Assembly: GCA_049970895.1 (NCBI GenBank)
Contig: JBMFMB010000013.1
Span: 1-45,723 of the forward strand
DNA: 45,723 nucleotides
Direction of reading: 5' to 3'
Origin: Candidatus Bathyarchaeia archaeon
Lineage (GTDB): Archaea; Thermoproteota; Bathyarchaeia; Bathyarchaeales; Bathycorpusculaceae
Position 1 is the first letter of the stretch, and the number at the start of each line of letters is the position of its first letter. The position numbers and the translations under genes are program-made. The notes under the pieces were generated by a model. The model worked only from the letters and a program-made list of their open reading frames with translations. It was not told where the DNA came from and searched no databases. Shown in pieces: positions 13,079-45,435 of the stretch.

Positions 13079-14098
13079 TTATTTGCCTTTCAAAAGTTTT
13101 GGCAACAGCAAAGGCAGCCACCCACAAACAATCATTAGGGTTCCTGGAAAAGCCCTCATCCTGAAGGTTAATATTAAGGCTTCAAAGATAAAGAAGGAGG
13201 CAGCCATTCCCAATGCTGATAGAATAGCAAGATTTTTTCCATATTTTTTGTAAGTTTGTACCGCTATGAGACCGGCAAAGAAGAAATCCCCTAAGCCAAG
13301 CGACATGTAAAGCGTGCCCCAATTTGTCCTTATTTCAGGAATTGTTGGCATGGTGACAAGCACTGGAAGCCTTAAAGCGGAAACATGTGTTGCCGCCGAA
13401 ACCATAGTTCCCGTTACAAGCACTAGGATTATGTCGGCTGCTGTCAAGAGCCCGGCGAAGATTAGTGTTGTTTTCCATGTGAAAAAAGCCGCAAGATATA
13501 GAACTACCAGAACAGCGAAAATTATGCCATACATGTTAAGAAGGTATGGAAACCAAATTGGGCTTCTGCTGTAAAAAGCGTAGAGAATTATGAATAGGGC
13601 GGATGGCAAAACAGCCAAATACCATCGCCGCCCAATACACTTTCTCGTCTCTTCATAGATCAGGGCTATGAAAGAAAAGCCGAACAAGCAGTAAAATGCC
13701 GCAGCACCATATGCGGATAGCCCCCTTAAAAACGCTATGTTGAAGAGGCTGATGGTTGCCGCCATAAAACTGATTATTAGAAAGATCGTGCAGAAAAACT
13801 GGCTTTTAGTTTTTTGAAAATCCGAAAAGATATATGTGAACATAAAAAGAAGAGCTGAATAAGCGAACAGGAATATTATCATAACAGCCATCTGTGGGAC
13901 AAAAACCATAAGCGAAACGACTATGCTTATTGATGCCACAAGCATAACAGCGTCTTTAACTTCAAATTCCCTTTCTTCGAAGGTCATTTTTAGCTTTCCC
14001 TCAACTTTATCATTTAGGAAAGTGGCTGCTATTGTGACTGCAAAAAGGGTTAGGGGCATGGCAATGTCAAAGTACATAAGCGCACATAAGCTAAACAA
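13079..14098 (-). CDS. Polytopic membrane protein, GxGD (presenilin/SPP-like) aspartyl protease candidate
   Basis: Many hydrophobic helices; AD in one TM, SLGLGDFF motif, FPGTL at the PAL position. Confidence 0.7.
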   Translation of the reverse strand: MFSLCALMYFDIAMPLTLFAVTIAATFLNDKVEGKLKMTFEEREFEVKDAVMLVASISIVVSLMVFVPQMAVMIIFLFAYSALLFMFTYIFSDFQKTKSQFFCTIFLIISFMAATISLFNIAFLRGLSAYGAAAFYCLFGFSFIALIYEETRKCIGRRWYLAVLPSALFIILYAFYSRSPIWFPYLLNMYGIIFAVLVVLYLAAFFTWKTTLIFAGLLTAADIILVLVTGTMVSAATHVSALRLPVLVTMPTIPEIRTNWGTLYMSLGLGDFFFAGLIAVQTYKKYGKNLAILSALGMAASFFIFEALILTFRMRAFPGTLMIVCGWLPLLLPKLLKGK

Positions 14099-34680: not shown

Positions 34681-35277
34681 GTGTTGAAATTGGAAGACAA
34701 AGTTATAATTGGTATAGATTTAGCGGGCAAAGAGGAAAACCCTACAGGTTTGGCACTCTGGCAAAACAAAAATGTGGAAACATGCCTAATTTACACAAAC
34801 AATGAAATTTTAGAAAAAGTTTTTAGCACAAACCCAAAAATCGTGGCAATAGACGCTCCGCTAAAACTTCCAAAAAGCGGAATTTTTAGAAAAGCGGATA
34901 AGGAGCTCATCAAAAAGGGTTACCGCGTTTTTCCACCGGGCTTGCCTGCCATGAAAAAGCTCACCCTTCGGGCAATTGAGCTAAATAGGTTAATAACAGA
35001 AAGGGGCATACAAACAATAGAAGTGCATCCTGCATCAACGAGAAAGGCTCTAGACATGCCAACAAAAGACTGGAAAACCATTCAAAGCATCCTAAAAAGC
35101 ATAGGTTTAGCTGGTTCTCTAAGCAAGCATATGTTAACGCCGCATGAGATAGACGCTGTAACCGCAGCCCTAACGGGCTATCTCTACATGGAAGGCTTAA
35201 CGGAATTTGTAGGCGACCATGAGGAAGGCTATGTTGTAGTCCCAATAAAACAGAATTGGAGGAAGATAAGGCTTTGA
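34681..35277 (+). CDS. DUF429 predicted nuclease (RNase H-like fold)
   Basis: GIDLAG, AIDAPL, R-AD-EL, IEVHP, HEIDA. Confidence 0.85.
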   Translation: MLKLEDKVIIGIDLAGKEENPTGLALWQNKNVETCLIYTNNEILEKVFSTNPKIVAIDAPLKLPKSGIFRKADKELIKKGYRVFPPGLPAMKKLTLRAIELNRLITERGIQTIEVHPASTRKALDMPTKDWKTIQSILKSIGLAGSLSKHMLTPHEIDAVTAALTGYLYMEGLTEFVGDHEEGYVVVPIKQNWRKIRL

Positions 35278-36857
35278 TCTTCTCAGAAAAGCTTCAAAAA
35301 GCTGTGGAACTCACCATAGCAGCGGGATATCAGCTCAACAAAGAAGCCTTCGAATTTCTAAATGATGTTTCCATAACCGAGGACCCCGTGGAAATTGTAA
35401 GCAAAGCCTTAGCAAAAATAGAAACGCTAAAGGACAAGCCGCTCTTTATCGAGCGAAGCTTTCTAGAGGAACTTGTAAAAAAGCCTGAGCATATAGAAGC
35501 CCCTATGGTAGAGCCCGAGATAAAGTACACCTTGGCCTCACCAATGCCTTCTCAAGAGCGAATAATACAGTCGCAGTTAATCCTTGAGGGAAAGAAGGTT
35601 TTCCGTCCTTACGCGAAAGACGTGGAAGCTGAAATCAAAGTAATTGAGGATGCTGGCAGTAAACTCAGTTCAAGCGGAACAATGGAGGATTACCTTGAAT
35701 ATTTTCGGGACCGGTTTAAGCGAATTGAAAAGTTGCTTAGGCAAAGGATGGATGTGAAAGGTGCAGTTTCAATTGCCGACGCATTAAACGCCGCTCCCGA
35801 CACAAGGCTTAAAGTAATTGGGATGATAACGGAGAAATGGGAAGCAAAACAAAAAGTTCTACTGACGATAGAAGATTTCAGTGCAAATGCCACCGTTTTA
35901 GTACCTCAGAACGCTCCACCCGACCTTTTGGCTAAGGCTAGAACACTTTTGCTGGATCAAGTCATTTGCGTTAGTGTGGTCAAAACCCGAGGAAAACTTT
36001 TGATAGCTGAAGACATTATTCTGCCAGACATCCCTCCCAAAAATCAAAACAGGGCTCAAGTTCCAGTTTATGCCGTCCTCACTTCAGACATGCATGTGGG
36101 CAGCACAAAATTTCAGGAACCCCTTTTCAGCAGGTTTGTTTCGTGGCTTAAGGGCGAATATGGGAATGGGCAAATGCGGGAAATAGCCAGCCACGTGAAA
36201 TATGTCCTGATTGCTGGCGATATTGTTGATGGAATAGGTGTCTACCCTAACCAAGCCAAGGAACTCGCAATAAAAGACATTTATGGACAGTATAGGTTAG
36301 CTACAAAACTCATCAAACAAATCCCAGACCATATCGAAGTGATAATTATTCCCGGAAACCACGACGCCCCAAGGAAGGCTCTACCCCAACCACCAATATC
36401 TGATGCTTTCCTCGAACTCATACAAGATGTAGGTAATGTCCACTCCTTCGGAAACCCATGCCTCATAAGCCTCCACAACGTCGAAGTGCTCATGTACCAC
36501 GGTCGAAGCCTCGATGACATAATATCCACAGTCCCTGGAATAAACTATGCTCAACCTGAAAAAGCAATGACACTACTTTTGCAGTGCCGCCATTTAGCGC
36601 CAGTCTATGGTGGAAAAACGCCCATAGCGCCAGAAAGCAGAGACTGCCTTGTCATAGAGCGGGTGCCAAACATCTTCCACGCAGGCCACATACACACCGT
36701 CGGACACACCAATTACAGGGGCGTCACCATCATTAACTCCGGTTGCTGGCAAGAACAGACAGAATACATGCGAAGGCAAGGGTTCACACCCATGCCAGGC
36801 CTCGTTCCTGTAGTAAATCTCCAAGCATTAGACGTTCGCATCATCTCATTTGCCTAA
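35274..36857 (+). CDS. polB: DNA polymerase D small subunit DP1 (proofreading exonuclease)
   Basis: OB fold, SDMHVGS, AGDIVDG-G-YPNQ, PGNHD, YHG, HLAP, GHIH; TTG start overlaps the upstream TGA. Confidence 0.95.
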   Translation: MIFSEKLQKAVELTIAAGYQLNKEAFEFLNDVSITEDPVEIVSKALAKIETLKDKPLFIERSFLEELVKKPEHIEAPMVEPEIKYTLASPMPSQERIIQSQLILEGKKVFRPYAKDVEAEIKVIEDAGSKLSSSGTMEDYLEYFRDRFKRIEKLLRQRMDVKGAVSIADALNAAPDTRLKVIGMITEKWEAKQKVLLTIEDFSANATVLVPQNAPPDLLAKARTLLLDQVICVSVVKTRGKLLIAEDIILPDIPPKNQNRAQVPVYAVLTSDMHVGSTKFQEPLFSRFVSWLKGEYGNGQMREIASHVKYVLIAGDIVDGIGVYPNQAKELAIKDIYGQYRLATKLIKQIPDHIEVIIIPGNHDAPRKALPQPPISDAFLELIQDVGNVHSFGNPCLISLHNVEVLMYHGRSLDDIISTVPGINYAQPEKAMTLLLQCRHLAPVYGGKTPIAPESRDCLVIERVPNIFHAGHIHTVGHTNYRGVTIINSGCWQEQTEYMRRQGFTPMPGLVPVVNLQALDVRIISFA

Positions 36858-37387
36858 GATAGGCCGCGGGCAATAAGCCTAGCAACGCGAAGGGGTTCTG
36901 GCACTCGGCCGCAAACGGCAAAACTTGTTATAAGGCGGCTAGCCCACTCTACTTCTGCGTCGACAACCTCAACATATAGTGGAGGCTCTTCAGCGAATAC
37001 CCTCACTTCATGGATTGGCCCTAATCTTTCAAAAACCTCCCAACGTCTCTTCCAATCCCTAAAGTGCCGAATTAGCGCCTGTTTTACCGCCCTATTGTCG
37101 GGTTTCACCCTCGACACAACAACAACGGGTTTGTGAAACTCGTCGTGAAGAACTACGGGGTCTATGACATTAAAGCCAGCAAAAGACACCCCCGCAAGCA
37201 TAACCACCTCAAAATCCCACCGCCTTAGGACACTGACAGCCTTTTCCGTCGCATCTAAACCGTCAACAGTTATCCTTTGGAAGGCTGCATCCTCAATTTT
37301 CAAATCCTTTAAAAGAACCGCTGCCAAGAGAGCCTTTTTCGTAAAGCCTTTTACAAAGCTTCCATCTTCAATTCCTACCACCCGCAA
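36854..37387 (-). CDS. DUF99 / endonuclease V-like protein
   Basis: GIEDG-F, VDGLDAT, G-SFAGFNV, PEPLRVA-LIA; overlaps the 3' end of cdc6. Confidence 0.87.
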   Translation of the reverse strand: MRVVGIEDGSFVKGFTKKALLAAVLLKDLKIEDAAFQRITVDGLDATEKAVSVLRRWDFEVVMLAGVSFAGFNVIDPVVLHDEFHKPVVVVSRVKPDNRAVKQALIRHFRDWKRRWEVFERLGPIHEVRVFAEEPPLYVEVVDAEVEWASRLITSFAVCGRVPEPLRVARLIARGLS

Positions 37388-38636
37388 CCTTTGAAAGGCA
37401 TTTGGGCTCATAATCAATCAGGCGTCCAAGCCTACTGTCATTAGAGAAGGCTTCTCTAATAAGGGTGCGCGTTACCTCCATGCGGATCTTCTTTGTCCGT
37501 CCATAACGCCCCATGCTAACAACTTGCGCATTCAACAGCCCTAAAGCATCAAGTTCATTAACCAAAGTGCTTACCCGCCTCTGAGTTAGGGGCGTCACAG
37601 CCAATTCGCTGCAAAGCTCATTGTACACCTCATATATTTCACCAGTGACTGCGCGGTAACCGTTCGCCCTAACAAGGTGGTAGACACTTAACATTACAAG
37701 TTTTGAATGCAGGGTCAAATTTGCCAAGGCATCAACAACACGATTATGCTCTATAAGCCTTTCAGCCTCGCGCACATGCTCCTCTGTAACAGTGTTAGCA
37801 CCTTTACGTTCAGCAACTTCACCAGCAACCCTAAGCAAGTCCAAGGCCCTTCTAGCATCACCATGCTCAGCAGCAGCCAAAGCTGCACAGAGGCTAAGGG
37901 CTCCTTCGCTAAGGGCACCTTCAAGGAAGGCCATCCGCGCCCGCTCAGCCAAAATGTTCCGCAGTTCAGTCGCATTGTAGGGTCTAAAAACTATTTCTTC
38001 CTCACTTAGCGAGCTTAAAACCCGCGGGTCCAAGAACTCTTTTAGGCGTAAGTCGTTGGATATGCCTATTAAAGAGACTTTGCTGCGGACCAATGTTTCG
38101 TTTATTCTTGTAAGCTCGTAGAGGAGGATGTCGCTTCGGGCCTTTACTAAAGCGTCCACCTCGTCGAGGGCTATAAGCAAGATTCTTTTAGTCACGTCCA
38201 AACCATGCTTAAACCTGTCAAAAACCTCGCCCAAAGAAAGCCCGGTAAATGGAACTGTTAGGTTAATACTGTGGCATAAGCTTGCAACAACTCGATACTC
38301 TGTCCCAGCCAAACGACAGTTTACATAGCAGAAACTCACAGGCGCCCCGATCTCTTTTGCTTTTGCCTCTAAACGGCTCAAAACATACTTTGTTACAGCC
38401 GTTTTACCAGTCCCAGTCTTCCCATAAACAAAAATGTTGGAACAGCGTGCACCTTTTAAAACAGGTGCTATAGCCTCCCCAAGCCTCCGAATCTGATCTT
38501 CACGATGGGGAAGCCTTTCAGGCAAGTAATCATGGCGAAGAACCTCTCTGTCCTTAAACACGCCCGTTGCACTGCAAATTCTATTGAATACCTCGTCAAG
38601 TATACCTAAATCGTTCATGAACTTACCCTTCCTCAT
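37368..38636 (-). CDS. cdc6: Orc1/Cdc6 replication initiator
   Basis: LPHRE, Walker A GKTGTGKT, Walker B LDEVD, GDARRA, C-terminal wHTH with GRYGRT. Confidence 0.97.
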   Translation of the reverse strand: MRKGKFMNDLGILDEVFNRICSATGVFKDREVLRHDYLPERLPHREDQIRRLGEAIAPVLKGARCSNIFVYGKTGTGKTAVTKYVLSRLEAKAKEIGAPVSFCYVNCRLAGTEYRVVASLCHSINLTVPFTGLSLGEVFDRFKHGLDVTKRILLIALDEVDALVKARSDILLYELTRINETLVRSKVSLIGISNDLRLKEFLDPRVLSSLSEEEIVFRPYNATELRNILAERARMAFLEGALSEGALSLCAALAAAEHGDARRALDLLRVAGEVAERKGANTVTEEHVREAERLIEHNRVVDALANLTLHSKLVMLSVYHLVRANGYRAVTGEIYEVYNELCSELAVTPLTQRRVSTLVNELDALGLLNAQVVSMGRYGRTKKIRMEVTRTLIREAFSNDSRLGRLIDYEPKCLSKVAGGRN

Positions 38637-38770
38637 GAATTCAGCTTTAACTGCAAAGTGCGTACACCCTCTGCATTAAGTGTTAAGATAAGGTCTGTCA
38701 TACAGAAAAGTGAACAAGCAACAGAAAAATCCTAAAAGTTTATGAAAAATCTCAAACCAGAAAGAAGGGA

Positions 38771-38792
38771 CACCCCTCAGTTTCTTCTGGAA
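38771..38792 (-). promoter_or_regulatory. Origin recognition box ORB1
   Basis: Reverse complement TTCCAGAAGAAACTGAGGGGTG matches the TTCCA---GAAA----GGGGT consensus. Confidence 0.88.
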
Positions 38793-38959
38793 AAATCTTA
38801 AATTGCTAGTTATTAACTCTCGTTTCTTTTAAAAAAGAAAATACTCTAAAAGGTTAAGCTTTCTTAAAGTTAAAAAGAGCTCTCGTAGAAGTTTTTATAC
38901 CTAAGTTAAAAATGTTTAATGGTCCAAAACCTCAGCTAAAACCCCTTTTTTAACTTGAT

Positions 38960-38980
38960 TTCCAGTAGAAATTATGGGGT
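38960..38980 (+). promoter_or_regulatory. Origin recognition box ORB2
   Basis: TTCCAGTAGAAATTATGGGGT. Confidence 0.88.
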
Positions 38981-39009
38981 ATCCCCGCAGCGCCTTTCAC
39001 CCTAAACAG

Positions 39010-39036
39010 CTCAATCATCAATTCCTCAATCATCAA
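39010..39036 (+). repeat. 12-bp direct repeat CTCAATCATCAA x2
   Basis: Copies at 39010-39021 and 39025-39036. Confidence 0.85.
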
Positions 39037-39176
39037 CTACACTGAATTGCATTAAATCATTTCTTAGTTTCCTTCACTGTTAGTGAAAACATTGTGAAGT
39101 TTAGTCGGTTTTGTTGTTTTTCCATCTTTAATTTCATCAATATTACCATTTTTGTGTCTCTCCTTCGTGAAAATGC

Positions 39177-39198
39177 CACCCTCCATTTTCTATTGGAA
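39177..39198 (-). promoter_or_regulatory. Origin recognition box ORB3
   Basis: Reverse complement TTCCAATAGAAAATGGAGGGTG. Confidence 0.8.
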
Positions 39199-39383
39199 AT
39201 TGCAAATTAAAATCGTTTTCCCTCCGTTTGCCTTGAGAGTTTTTCTGTGAAGTTTGTGATTCAAAATCTTTGCAAATTAACCTTATTATACAATTTCAAA
39301 GGTTTAATGACCTTTTCTATATTTCTATTTTCACCGTAATACCTATATTTTGTGAAGTGCAAACTTGTGAAACGACCTAACGG

Positions 39384-39833
39384 GTGCCATTAATAGTGCC
39401 AGCGAGGAAAATGCGGATCGAAGTATTCGACAGCGAAGGCAACAAATATAGTATAGCCTTTGAGGGGCAGATCACACGCGATAAAGCCCTTCGTTTATTA
39501 GACTTGGTGGAGTTGTTAGGTGGGGTTTCATCAAGTGTATCAAACCCTGGGGGCAGTGTTACGGCGGTTGTTGAGAAGTCCAAATATGACAAAATGTTAG
39601 CAGTCCTTCAGAAGCACTTTCCAATTGTTTGGTTCACGTCAAAGGACGTTCAAATGGCTTATGAACAAGAGTTTAATGAACCAATAAGCCTTAGCACCGT
39701 AGCCACTTACCTTTCCAGAATGGCTAATAAGGGAATGCTCATAAAGGCTGGGGCCTCCAACCGCCTCAAATATAGAATTGCACCCAGCCCGTCGCAAGTT
39801 ATAGTGAGGCATCATATGCCAAACGAGGGTTAA
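39384..39833 (+). CDS. Hypothetical protein with C-terminal winged-helix domain
   Basis: Small N-terminal beta-beta-alpha-like domain, Gly/Ser linker, then FTSKDV...ISLSTVATYLSRMANKGML...KYRI wHTH pattern. Confidence 0.8.
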   Translation: MPLIVPARKMRIEVFDSEGNKYSIAFEGQITRDKALRLLDLVELLGGVSSSVSNPGGSVTAVVEKSKYDKMLAVLQKHFPIVWFTSKDVQMAYEQEFNEPISLSTVATYLSRMANKGMLIKAGASNRLKYRIAPSPSQVIVRHHMPNEG

Positions 39834-39839
39834 CGTGTT

Positions 39840-40553
39840 TTAGGCAGCTTCTGTTTCAGCTCTTTTCAAAATTCTTTCCATCTCTCTCTTTAAGCTATAT
39901 TTGAAGGGAATTTTGCTTGCATCCCTTTCCAAATATCCTTCCTCGTAAAGCTTCTTCATGAGCCTAGCCGTGTGTTCCCGGCTCAACTTGATTCTTTCCT
40001 TAATTTCAGGGGCTGTTTTAGGGCCTTCAGCGGCCAGCATCTCTAGCACTGCCAGCTCCGTTTCTGTCAGTTGAGCTAATGCTTTTTCCCTCTTTATGGG
40101 TATGGCCGTTTCAACCCACAGTTCAGGGGAAGCCGACACTTTTTGAGTTTTCTCCTCAATGACTGAAACTTTTTTGAGGATCTCCTTATGCGACTCAGTG
40201 ATGTCACGCGTTTGCTTTTCCACGTCACTTAATCTTTTCAGCATTTGCTCCCTATCTTCAAGTAGCTTCTCCGCTTTGTTCTCCAAGAGTTTTAAACGAT
40301 TCTCCAGTTCTTTAACAACCCTTAATGCGTCGCTGCTCCTCGAAGAAGCGGCCTCAACCTTATAAGAAACAGTCTGCAAGTTCTCTGCTGCCCGTTTAAG
40401 TTCCCTACTAAAACTCAAGATTATATCGTTAAACGCTTCCTTAGCCTTCTCATACTCCCTCCTGATTTTAACAAGGCTTCTGTAATACTCAATGGCAGCA
40501 CCGACAGCCACAGCTAAAAAAATACAAGCGACAAAGATCAAAAGGTCAATCAT
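39840..40553 (-). CDS. Membrane-anchored coiled-coil protein with C-terminal winged helix
   Basis: SD GAGGTG then ATG at 40553; TM LLIFVACIFLAVAVGAAI; long heptad-like stalk; LTETELAVL...TAPEIK...SREHTARLMKKLYEEGYLER. Confidence 0.85.
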   Translation of the reverse strand: MIDLLIFVACIFLAVAVGAAIEYYRSLVKIRREYEKAKEAFNDIILSFSRELKRAAENLQTVSYKVEAASSRSSDALRVVKELENRLKLLENKAEKLLEDREQMLKRLSDVEKQTRDITESHKEILKKVSVIEEKTQKVSASPELWVETAIPIKREKALAQLTETELAVLEMLAAEGPKTAPEIKERIKLSREHTARLMKKLYEEGYLERDASKIPFKYSLKREMERILKRAETEAA

Positions 40554-40585
40554 GTAATGCACCTCGTGACTCTCCTGTAACGCGT

Positions 40586-40811
40586 TGTGACGGCCCAATC
40601 ATGTTACATCACACATCACAGTTTTAGCACGCAAAGAACATTTAAGTATTGCGGTTTTATGAAAGTATGACATCACAAGTCACAAGCATATGCTCGGGCT
40701 GTGATTGTGGCGAAAGAAAAACGCTTATTTTCCGCCCCTTTTTTGGCTACCAACCCTGTTTAATGCTAAAGTGCGCGTATGCTTCTAGTGTTGTGTGATT
40801 TGTGATGTCAC
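40586..40811. repeat. Cluster of TGTGA / GTGATGTCAC-like motifs
   Basis: TGTGAC 40586, GTTACATCAC 40603, ACATCACA 40613, ATGACATCAC 40667, TCACA 40680, TGTGAT 40700 and 40794, GTGATGTCAC 40802. Confidence 0.75.
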
Positions 40812-41323
40812 GCAAGGCCTTCCGAAGGCCTTGAAAGTATTTTTAGGCTATTTTCGAGCTCCTCTCTTAGCGTTTTTAGTAATTTTACTTGTTCTTCTGG
40901 TTGCTCCGTCTTATTTGGTAATTCTTTGTGGGCTTCTATGTATTCCTGCAGTTTGTTTGCAATTTCAATATATTGATCAAGAGCTGTGCTTTCAAATATT
41001 CCCAAGTACCCTAAAAGCAGCACAGTGTAGATAGCCTTTACCACGTTTTCTTGGGCTTGTCTTAATGTTCTGTTGAAGGCTCCGCGGCTTATTTTTGCCT
41101 TTGTTAGCCGTAATCTGGCTTTTTCATCGTACTTTAGTGGTTTTCCCGCAATATTTTCGGCTAAAATGTCTATTAAAAGTGTTTCTAGTTGCGTTTTTGT
41201 TAAGTGGCTGTTTTTTGCCAGTATTTTGACTATGGGGTCTTCTAGAGACTTTTTTAACCATAATTGAACGCTGTTCTTCAACATTTCTGCTTTACACTCT
41301 TGGCTCATGCTCATCGAATACAC
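40808..41323 (-). CDS. Hypothetical protein with probable HTH and C-terminal helical region
   Basis: SHLTKTQLETL...ISRGAFNRTLRQA HTH-like segment, short hydrophobic stretch YTVLLLGYLGIF, charged helix. Confidence 0.75.
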   Translation of the reverse strand: MYSMSMSQECKAEMLKNSVQLWLKKSLEDPIVKILAKNSHLTKTQLETLLIDILAENIAGKPLKYDEKARLRLTKAKISRGAFNRTLRQAQENVVKAIYTVLLLGYLGIFESTALDQYIEIANKLQEYIEAHKELPNKTEQPEEQVKLLKTLREELENSLKILSRPSEGLA

Positions 41324-44670: not shown

Positions 44671-45435
44671 ATGGTTAGCGCCTTGATAGGTGCTGTTGAA
44701 AAATATTTGCTTGATAGAATCAGCTCGGAAGGGTCAATTCACATAACCCTCATAGATCCTGAAAAGGTTACGCCTTCCCAAGCGTTGACCATTGCCAGAA
44801 AGGCTAGGGCAAGTGGGACGTCGGCAATAATGATTGGAGGCTCCACTTTTATTTCGACTAAACATTTGGATGATGTTGTTAAAACCATTAAGCGGGCTGT
44901 AGATGTCCCAGTAATTCTATTTCCAAATAATGTTACGAGCATAAGCCGCTATGCAGATGCCATATGGTTCATGTCCCTCCTAAACTCTGTCGATCCGTAC
45001 TTTATAATTGGCGCGCAGGTTTTAGGTGCACCTTTAATCAAGCGATATCGTCTTGAACCAATCCCATTAGGCTATATTATTGTTGGTGAGGGTGGAACCG
45101 CTGGCATTGTTGGGAAGGCTGTTCCAATACCCTATGACAAGCCAGAATTAGCTGTTGCCCACGCCTTGGCAGGGCAGTATTTGGGCATGCGCTTCATCTA
45201 TCTCGAGGCTGGCTCCGGCGCTAAAAAGCCAGTTCCAAAAGAGATGATCCACGCTGTGAAGAAAAGTATAGATATTCCACTAATTGTTGGCGGAGGAATA
45301 AGAACACGAGCGCAAGCGCTGGCGGCGGCGTCGGCTGGCGCGGATATCATCGTTACTGGCAATGTTGTTGAGAACGGGCAAGTTAAGGACAAAGTTTCGG
45401 AGATTGTGGAGGGCTTAAAGAGCTGTAAAACGTAA
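44671..45435 (+). CDS. Geranylgeranylglyceryl phosphate synthase
   Basis: LIDPEK, IGGST, ILFP, YLEAGSGA, VGGGIR, VTGN. Confidence 0.94.
   Translation: MVSALIGAVEKYLLDRISSEGSIHITLIDPEKVTPSQALTIARKARASGTSAIMIGGSTFISTKHLDDVVKTIKRAVDVPVILFPNNVTSISRYADAIWFMSLLNSVDPYFIIGAQVLGAPLIKRYRLEPIPLGYIIVGEGGTAGIVGKAVPIPYDKPELAVAHALAGQYLGMRFIYLEAGSGAKKPVPKEMIHAVKKSIDIPLIVGGGIRTRAQALAAASAGADIIVTGNVVENGQVKDKVSEIVEGLKSCKT

Follow-up and report, generated by a model that had tools for sequence, protein, structure and literature searches.

Chromosome segregation and origin regulation outside Sulfolobus are an open problem in archaea, and a 2024 review describes the segregation mechanism as not known even in Sulfolobus (PMC7617429). 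The same review presents SegB of the Sulfolobus SegAB system as an archaeal site-specific DNA binder with a proposed part in chromosome organization and segregation, working with the ParA-like ATPase SegA (PMC7617429). At Sulfolobales and Desulfurococcales origins, the noninitiator protein UBP binds the ucm motif between the origin recognition boxes (ORBs) and is needed for origin function; it is a beta-rich, saddle-shaped protein of 111 amino acids (aa) that binds DNA through beta-hairpins at >300 sites genome-wide, and its authors ask whether analogous proteins exist in other archaeal lineages (PMC12141716). RicO of Staphylococcus aureus, with its ricS sites, combines binding to sites near the origin with a membrane-binding element and has been proposed to bridge origin and membrane for segregation (bioRxiv 10.64898/2026.03.06.710092). 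Here we describe three adjacent open reading frames (ORF1, ORF2, and ORF3; hereafter the trio) beside a predicted replication origin of Candidatus Bathyarchaeia archaeon (assembly GCA_049970895.1, contig JBMFMB010000013.1), within a stretch of 45,723 nt that was analyzed as a whole and is referred to as the window. By analogy, the trio would resemble RicO/ricS, UBP/ucm, and SegAB in its working while being a member of none of them.

Judged from sequence, the trio is a real, deeply conserved, unannotated, origin-adjacent module of predicted DNA-binding proteins with candidate cis elements of its own. Named database records for its members read “hypothetical protein” throughout, except for one UPF0251 label, and the literature, as judged mainly from search results, yielded no publication that deals with the three proteins or with the origins of Bathyarchaeia. 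The source genome has a size of 1.34 Mb and is 97% complete; the window is its contig C13, and window DNA was found in four DNA runs, all of them hot-spring metagenomes.

Comparison with Described Systems

The trio shares with RicO site-specific DNA binding near an origin, here predicted, together with a membrane element. As described, RicO is a single bacterial protein that binds DNA through an N-terminal domain and ends in an amphipathic helix, whereas the locus studied here encodes three proteins, and its predicted anchor is an N-terminal transmembrane helix followed by a long helical linker; the comparison is with RicO by its description. UBP is not presented as origin-adjacent or membrane-bound in the part of its description available to us, in contrast to the trio, which consists of helix-turn-helix (HTH) proteins with nearly private candidate sites. 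The saddle fold of UBP is absent from the trio, the ORF1 and ORF3 models being HTH or helical and ORF2 being MarR-type by Pfam, and sequence searches with the ORF1 or ORF3 profiles returned no UBP-like PDB chain, nor anything else significant in the PDB. No ParA-like Walker ATPase of the kind that partners SegB (CbiA, AAA_31, or similar) was found among the 45 window ORFs scanned, and no ParB-type Pfam family was matched by the three proteins at E values up to 1.

Clustered chromosomal sites are also bound by RacA (at ram) and Noc (at NBS) of Bacillus subtilis, which draw DNA toward the membrane or pole. The two proteins are bacterial, and their folds are not those of the trio; a reading of the ORF2 linker as RacA was rejected as noise (NCBIfam E 0.65, with a score of 10 bits where the cut-off is 165). 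The usual archaeal regulators of the MarR, TrmB, and Lrs14 types share with ORF2 the MarR/TrmB domain and operator-like sites at the gene's own TATA box. Such regulators are soluble, whereas ORF2 adds an N-terminal membrane helix, a linker of ∼115 residues, and adjacency to oriC.

The Origin and the Three Proteins

The spacer between orc1/cdc6 and ORF1 appears from its sequence to have the standard build of an archaeal origin (table 1). It adjoins an orc1/cdc6 gene with both Cdc6 domains, and inverted ORB repeats surround an AT-rich stretch within it; the ORB pattern has two matches against 0.03 expected. GC skew over the window gave no clear turn at the origin. The original prediction for this DNA, made by a model from the letters without database searches, had placed three uncharacterized genes immediately right of an ORB-containing origin and considered all three to be DNA binding. 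The genes are real and lie beside Orc1/Cdc6 and three ORBs, and the analyses of the individual proteins agree with the second claim: a winged-helix model for ORF1, a MarR domain in ORF2, and homology to the DUF134 HTH core in ORF3. All three therefore appear to be HTH proteins, for ORF3 by homology of the core alone.

ORF1 is predicted to be a soluble winged-helix protein. In its model, a disordered linker separates a short N-terminal beta-beta-alpha domain from a C-terminal winged helix, in which a three-helix bundle and a beta wing are modeled confidently (predicted local distance difference test, pLDDT, of 86-91 across residues 70-130). Foldseek assigned residues 62-137 to the winged-helix fold with probability 1.00 to the DNA-binding domains of RosR, Fur, and MecI, and a fold search with VIA gave a Z score of 10.4 (root-mean-square deviation 2.2, 69 aligned). 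Against Pfam no model exceeded its cut-off, the best being Penicillinase_R at 19.1 versus 22.6. A kinship of ORF1 with WhiP/Cdt1-like or MCM winged-helix proteins was rejected, just MCM_C appearing at E 0.021, under the cut-off.

ORF2 belongs to the MarR/TrmB winged-helix regulators by Pfam gathering score, its C-terminus matching MarR (33.8 bits, 3e-8; cut-off 24.6) and TrmB (29.7 bits, 5.7e-7; cut-off 25.6) and also Lrs14 in NCBIfam (4e-6). The protein begins with a hydrophobic helix of 19-23 residues (Kyte-Doolittle 2.67 over 19 residues) followed by basic residues, and continues into the ∼115-residue linker, which is predicted to be helical and is 43% charged or Q with one proline and no glycine. 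The N-terminal transmembrane helix would place ORF2 in the membrane, and the protein is probably dimerized via its long helical linker as a putative coiled coil. Of the transmembrane helix, coiled coil, and winged helix that had been proposed for ORF2, the two ends and a charged helical linker were recovered, the coiled coil itself being a prediction. The transmembrane helix is kept in 11 of 15 homologs from other lineages (Kyte-Doolittle at least 1.8), the architecture is kept in other classes, and the recognition helix (SREHTARLMKKL) shows almost no variation between Bathyarchaeia and Nitrosopumilaceae. A complex prediction for ORF2 (residues 50-252) with ORF3 (residues 14-171) scored 0.00 with the verdict “no answer,” which is evidence neither way.

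The ORF3 model is all-helical, comprising an HTH core, a hydrophobic helix, and a C-terminal helical hairpin. With a profile of 26 family members as the query, hhalign aligned the core (residues 28-86 of the 158-aa form) to the DUF134 HTH over 49 columns (93.9%, E 1.6e-7), indicating an HTH core homologous to that of DUF134/UPF0251. ORF3 does not reach the gathering score of the corresponding Pfam family (PF02001), for which the window protein gave no match and 1 of the 26 family members matched at E 0.043; nor did ORF3 match any other Pfam or NCBIfam entry. Relative to DUF134/UPF0251, ORF3 adds an HTH insertion, the hydrophobic helix, and the C-terminal hairpin, and true DUF134 genes exist separately elsewhere in these genomes. 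The hydrophobic stretch noted in the original prediction (Kyte-Doolittle 1.55, pLDDT <50) does not make a convincing membrane span, although the HTH-like character claimed alongside it held. Foldseek found no match to the whole model at E ≤ 0.001, and a wide VIA search matched the hairpin only (residues 109-171, Z ≤ 8.5), as is common for helical hairpins. Atlas clusters contained “hypothetical protein” entries only, plus a weak Sigma70_r4 lead (score 0.79, 14% of members), and one record of the Joint Genome Institute (JGI) labels a Calditenuaceae homolog “predicted DNA-binding protein (UPF0251 family).” A search for longer, fused versions of ORF3 turned up one 362-aa protein, which is encoded on a 1.4-kb contig and has no domain record, offering no Rosetta-stone support.

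Candidate Binding Sites

The original prediction described the intergenic DNA of the trio as dense in TGTGA-type repeats, which is true locally. Taking the genome TGTGA rate of 1.46 per kb as the Poisson background, eight copies in 220 bp upstream of ORF2 (40586-40805; 2e-9) and five copies in 278 bp upstream of ORF1, all on the plus strand (39093-39370; 7e-5), stand out, whereas across the whole window the motif occurs at chance (71 copies vs. 72 expected). The densest TGTGA cluster in the genome is the one beside the trio. The composite TGTGA-NN-TGTGA has five copies genome-wide, three of them in one spacer (within 40603-40811), a distribution unlike the dispersed promoter sites that the original prediction had named as evidence against itself. 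A TGTGA cluster at contig C30:8566 sits in coding-looking sequence and was dismissed as chance.

The candidate sites interleave with the ORBs and flank the promoters of the trio (table 1). At the place of the single site between ORB2 and ORB3, relatives mostly hold a TGTGA double site, and a close double is present within the origin spacer in 14 of the 19 loci of the order that were compared. The 14-mer just right of ORB3 has only one other genome copy, on the unplaced 698-bp contig C48, where positions 300-326 read TGTGAA-N7-TGTGAAGTTTGTGA; the DNA upstream of ORF1 may be represented there in variant or collapsed form. The TGTGA-N7-13-TGA pattern of the site before ORF1 is found at the same place, immediately upstream of the gene, in 11 of the 19 loci. 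Sites 1 and 2, upstream of ORF2, take on the ORF2 strand the 17-18-nt form TGTGA-NN-TGTGATGTMA, and a TTTAAA-type element lies between them also in the relatives compared. A double site at the ORF3 stop, like site 3, is present in 14 of the 19 loci. In addition, GTGATGTCACGC inside the ORF2 coding sequence (40198-40209) is identical to the end of site 3 (40802-40813), and GTGATGTCAC has just three copies in the genome.

Sites around a TATA box or over a transcription start have the classic geometry of archaeal repressors, activators, and autoregulation. The candidate sites bracket the ORF2 TATA-like box and cover the expected ORF1 start, a geometry that makes autoregulation of the ORF1 and ORF2 promoters likely and well supported. 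Both the ORF2 recognition helix and the arrays upstream of ORF2 are conserved from Bathyarchaeia to Nitrosopumilaceae, which favors ORF2 as the protein that binds its own promoter.

Table 1. Genes, Origin Elements, and Candidate Sites around the Trio (Window Coordinates)
Feature	Position	Strand	Remarks
PolD small subunit	35256-36857	+	Left flank of origin block
Endo_dU gene	36854-37417	-	Between PolD small subunit and orc1/cdc6
orc1/cdc6 initiator gene	37368-38636	-	Cdc6_C 5e-29, Cdc6_lid 1e-26, AAA_22 (Pfam); divergent from ORF1 across origin
oriC-type spacer	38637-39395		To likely ORF1 start (747 bp = 38637-39383); three ORB-like elements
ORB1	38767-38793	-	Inverted repeat analysis (I1, I3)
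AT-rich stretch, 165 bp	38794-38958		Between inverted ORB1 and ORB2; G+C 27.3% vs. 44.8% for window
ORB2	38959-38985	+	Inverted repeat analysis (I1, I3)
TGTGAAG single site	39093-39097	+	Between ORB2 and ORB3
ORB3	39178-39200	-	Inverted repeat analysis (I1, I3)
TGTGAAGTTTGTGA double site	39246-39259	+	Just right of ORB3
TATA-like CTATATTT, then directly TGTGAAGTGCAAACTTGTGA	39343-39370	+	26 nt before likely ORF1 start; operator-like, over expected transcription start
ORF1	39384-39833	+	Likely start GTG 39396, from ortholog alignments
ORF2	39840-40598	-	Likely start ATG 40553, from ortholog alignments
ORF2 operator-like site 1, TGTGATGTGTGATGTAAC (minus strand)	40603-40620	-	∼20 nt downstream of TATA-like box; repeats D19, I6
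TATA-like ACTTAAAT of ORF2	40640-40647	-	Read from sequence
ORF2 operator-like site 2, TGTGACTTGTGATGTCA (minus strand)	40668-40684	-	∼20 nt upstream of TATA-like box; repeats D19, I7
Site 3, TGTGATTTGTGATGTCAC	40794-40811	+	Inverted vs. sites 1 and 2; overlaps ORF3 stop codon; repeats I6, I7
ORF3	40808-41323	-	Likely start ATG 41284, from ortholog alignments
Aminotransferase gene	Right of ORF3		Gene order polD-Endo_dU-cdc6-ORF1-ORF2-ORF3-aminotransferase

Conservation within the Bathyarchaeia

Single-protein searches of 41 genomes of the order, this genome included, found ORF1 in 33 and ORF3 in 36, always as a single copy, and ORF2 in 32 with one main copy each, one of these genomes (G029) also having a weak second match (E 1.5e-5). 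Some of the misses reflect sensitivity or sampling, as the ORF3 profile found the gene in five of six and one of two genomes of two families whose representative had been missed. cdc6, the spacer, ORF1, ORF2, and ORF3 follow the same relative order in 19 of 20 loci, the contig of the twentieth stopping 230 nt past cdc6. TGTGA/TCACA is repeated in all 19 loci, with 6-12 copies between ORF2 and ORF3 and 3-9 copies in the origin spacer; at least two heptad-spaced double sites are present in 15 of them, and in 11 the C-rich end of an ORB has a TGTGA at a distance of 3-10 nt.

The same arrangement was seen in a wider set. Species genomes gave 446 confirmed ORF1 loci, of which the best 80 were analyzed; every one of these is named Bathyarchaeia or Bathyarchaeota. 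A divergent cdc6 is present in 75 of the 76 loci with at least 1500 nt upstream, across a spacer of 721-866 bp (median 792), and ORF2 lies within 3 kb of ORF1 in all 69 loci with at least 2900 nt downstream. The density of TGTGA/TCACA is 8.7 per kb in the origin spacers (n = 76) and 26.2 per kb in the ORF2-ORF3 spacers (n = 54, every one with a heptad-spaced double site), as against 1.40 per kb in aligned adjoining coding parts. These genomes are related, and the counts are therefore a description of conservation rather than independent trials. Co-conservation and origin linkage, the check proposed with the original prediction, are in this way borne out across the Bathyarchaeia.

Among the matches listed, which were inspected by hand, ORF3 lies within 6.5 kb of cdc6 in 30 of 32 from the order, the other two being on different contigs, and within 9 kb in seven of nine from other Bathyarchaeia orders. 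The genes stay adjacent although their internal order varies, through inversion of ORF3 and through insertion of NurA/HerA or of some other gene. In both Bathyarchaeia orders that lack one of its partners, ORF3 is the member that is present. A family labeled Bathyarchaeia by NCBI (f25) has ORF1 alone beside cdc6 in seven of seven matches listed, and ORF3 was found in none of its eight genomes, which makes it a natural variant with ORF1 only.

Conservation beyond the Class

Profile searches of 301 Thermoproteota genomes (with a threshold of E 1e-70 for cdc6 orthologs) found ORF3 in 128, ORF1 in 197, and a cdc6 ortholog in 255. The trio occurs together in Nitrososphaeria and other classes, which bears out the mention of similar Nitrososphaerota proteins in the original prediction. 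Three further families (represented by loci L062, L064, and L065) have the order polD, Endo_dU, cdc6, ORF1, ORF2, ORF3; an extra opposite-strand ORF fills their ORF2-ORF3 spacer, and in L062 and L065 a palindromic TGTGA-N10-TCACATGTGA element lies at the end of this ORF. In one family (f18), of which one member is named Nitrosarchaeum koreense, ORF1 is present in 43 of 43 genomes.

The Nitrosopumilaceae retain polD-cdc6-ORF1-ORF2-ORF3 in the order and orientation of the window in all five complete genomes examined. Their ORF2 upstream spacer keeps TCACA/TGTGA arrays (4-7 copies in ∼220 bp), and in their origin spacers (L097-L101) TGTGAA is replaced by densely packed GTTAAC(A) repeats, located between the ORBs and after them, which may represent a lineage switch of the origin-side motif. 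In one of them (L097), ORF3 is followed by a 249-aa ORF and a 1124-aa ORF that was read by eye as the PolD large subunit; conservation may extend to more of the region surrounding the origin. Linkage is looser in the Calditenuaceae, at 13-22 kb.

Possible Roles

We hold the trio to be an ancient, self-regulated DNA-binding module tied to the origin, with a plausible added role in origin-membrane contact and/or initiator access, and regard this account as evenly poised between right and wrong. One or more of the trio proteins would bind the short GTGA-type repeats that are found almost only at this locus, and binding to the double sites flanking the ORF2 TATA box and to the site over the ORF1 start would produce autoregulation. 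Proteins on the sites between or next to the ORBs would sit beside Orc1/Cdc6. Because ORF2 has a predicted membrane anchor without an outside domain, the likeliest added role would be to hold or organize the DNA near the origin at the cell membrane, and/or to adjust access of the initiator. Together with this anchor, the extra sites among the ORBs and the narrow range of spacer lengths suggest that the trio also acts on the origin region itself, either holding it at the membrane or modulating Orc1/Cdc6. The genes, their domains, the site arrays, the promoter geometry, and the deep conservation of all these beside cdc6 are observed; we infer the assignment of protein to site, the membrane location of ORF2, and any effect on replication or segregation. 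The interpretation in the original prediction, a centromere-like module linking oriC to the membrane, is as a whole partly supported, its centromere or membrane-tether function being the predicted part.

A tethering, segregation, or replication-control role is plausible and stands on a roughly equal footing with plain regulation. The strongest single rival is that the trio proteins are ordinary autoregulated transcription factors, acting on their own promoters and perhaps on neighbors (cdc6, polD, and, in relatives, NurA-HerA) with no structural role at the origin, their adjacency to cdc6 stemming from inherited synteny or from an advantage of early replication for cell-cycle regulators. This is a serious possibility, though it falls somewhat short of probable. 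It agrees with the MarR/Lrs14-type winged helix of ORF2, with the double sites flanking the ORF2 TATA-like box, with the site covering the expected ORF1 start, and with the loss of cdc6 linkage in Caldarchaeum and Methanomethylicia genomes. It accounts less well for the number of sites, which exceeds the need of two promoters and includes some that are distant from any start codon, in the ORB2-ORB3 interval or next to ORB3; for a cdc6 adjacency that outlasts internal rearrangements in several classes; and for a membrane anchor without an outside sensor domain, which would be unusual in a plain regulator.

Several observations weigh against the origin-linked account that we prefer. Ordinary autoregulation fully explains the sites around the TATA boxes, and part of the linkage to cdc6 may be inherited synteny with polD and cdc6. 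ORB3 of the window has CGTGA beside it rather than TGTGA. Adjacency is not universal: in one family (f31) the genes are spread over ∼33 kb and the linkage is at ∼30 kb, except for one genome at 5.8 kb; in Caldarchaeum the linkage is 11-14 kb for ORF3-ORF2 and ORF1 is 505 kb from cdc6 (G065); in another family (f43) ORF3 is on another contig without its neighbors; and 190 kb separate the ORF1-ORF2 pair from cdc6 in one genome of the Methanomethylicia (G048). Finally, no motor ATPase was found in the module of this genome.

The most specific form of the origin-linked account is an archaeal origin-to-membrane tether, in which anchored ORF2 dimers would occupy the GTGA arrays flanking oriC, with ORF1 and ORF3 beside the ORBs, so that the newly replicated origin would be held at the envelope and access of Orc1/Cdc6 gated. 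Such a tether would be ancestral to the PolD-bearing Thermoproteota (Bathyarchaeia, ammonia oxidizers, and Aigarchaeota) and originally coupled to a HerA-type DNA pump. In this full form it is unlikely, and if true it would give physical shape to the notion, from the replicon model, that the origin is attached to the membrane.

The original prediction had seen no ParA/SegA ATPase here, and the lack of an ATPase holds for this genus only: in about half of the relatives, a HerA-like ATPase gene and a NurA-like gene lie between ORF1 and ORF2. The ORF1-ORF2 gap measures ∼2.6 kb in 11 of the 19 loci of the order, and in 10 of these it holds ORFs of ∼335 and ∼520 aa on the ORF1 strand, the eleventh having an assembly gap. 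Both of the larger ORFs tested (L037 and L038) match DUF87, the HerA central domain, above the cut-off of 23.2 bits (3.4e-11 and 9.8e-13; 44.1 and 49.1 bits). One of the two smaller ORFs tested matches NurA just under the cut-off of 21 (0.00094, 19.2 bits), and the other gave no match. The best NCBIfam entry for the HerA-like protein is the DNA-translocating ATPase CedD (5.9e-18), far under its cut-off.

These genes raise a further alternative, namely that the trio is the accessory or regulatory set of an origin-side NurA-HerA machine for DNA processing or pumping, with ORF1 heading an ORF1-NurA-HerA operon in many relatives, and that the enzymes were lost in this genus, leaving the regulators as relics. 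The spacing of ORF2 in the wider set cuts both ways: it lies 2-3 kb from ORF1 in 20 of the 69 loci, as an insert would require, whereas in 46 it is <300 nt away (in three the distance is between these). A genome search found neither NurA nor HerA-like genes in this genome, and the presence of the trio where the pair was not found argues that it is independent of NurA-HerA. The trio is intact, single-copy, and 71-93% identical in the genus, in which neither enzyme was found, and the Nitrosopumilaceae likewise have the trio without the pair. We consider this alternative quite improbable. That the trio is an artefact or mobile element, whether ORFs arisen by chance, the remnant of a prophage or plasmid, or a cassette of toxin-antitoxin type inserted near the origin, might be suspected from small, unannotated proteins, but it has next to no probability, being already contradicted by conservation (each gene is single-copy and keeps its position in nearly all relatives, and ORF3 has 3095 homologs), by an unexceptional composition, and by housekeeping neighbors.

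The trio is a testable candidate, with defined proteins and candidate DNA sites that lie some hundreds of bases away from the ORBs, and orthologs exist in cultured ammonia oxidizers (Nitrosarchaeum), where sequencing after chromatin immunoprecipitation (ChIP-seq), as well as microscopy, is possible. If its proteins are only regulators, they still form a widely conserved unannotated unit, judging from the Thermoproteota counts for ORF1 (197/301) and ORF3 (128/301), beside key replication genes.

Other features of the genome and window were recorded. A second, distant Orc1/Cdc6 paralog (33% identity) is encoded on contig C3 of this genome (67230-68366). A 339-aa ORF at 13079-14098 (minus strand), which matched no Pfam family at E ≤ 1e-5, lies amid ribosomal and tRNA-processing genes, and a gene of the PcrB/GGGP-synthase family is located near the window end (44671-45435, plus strand).

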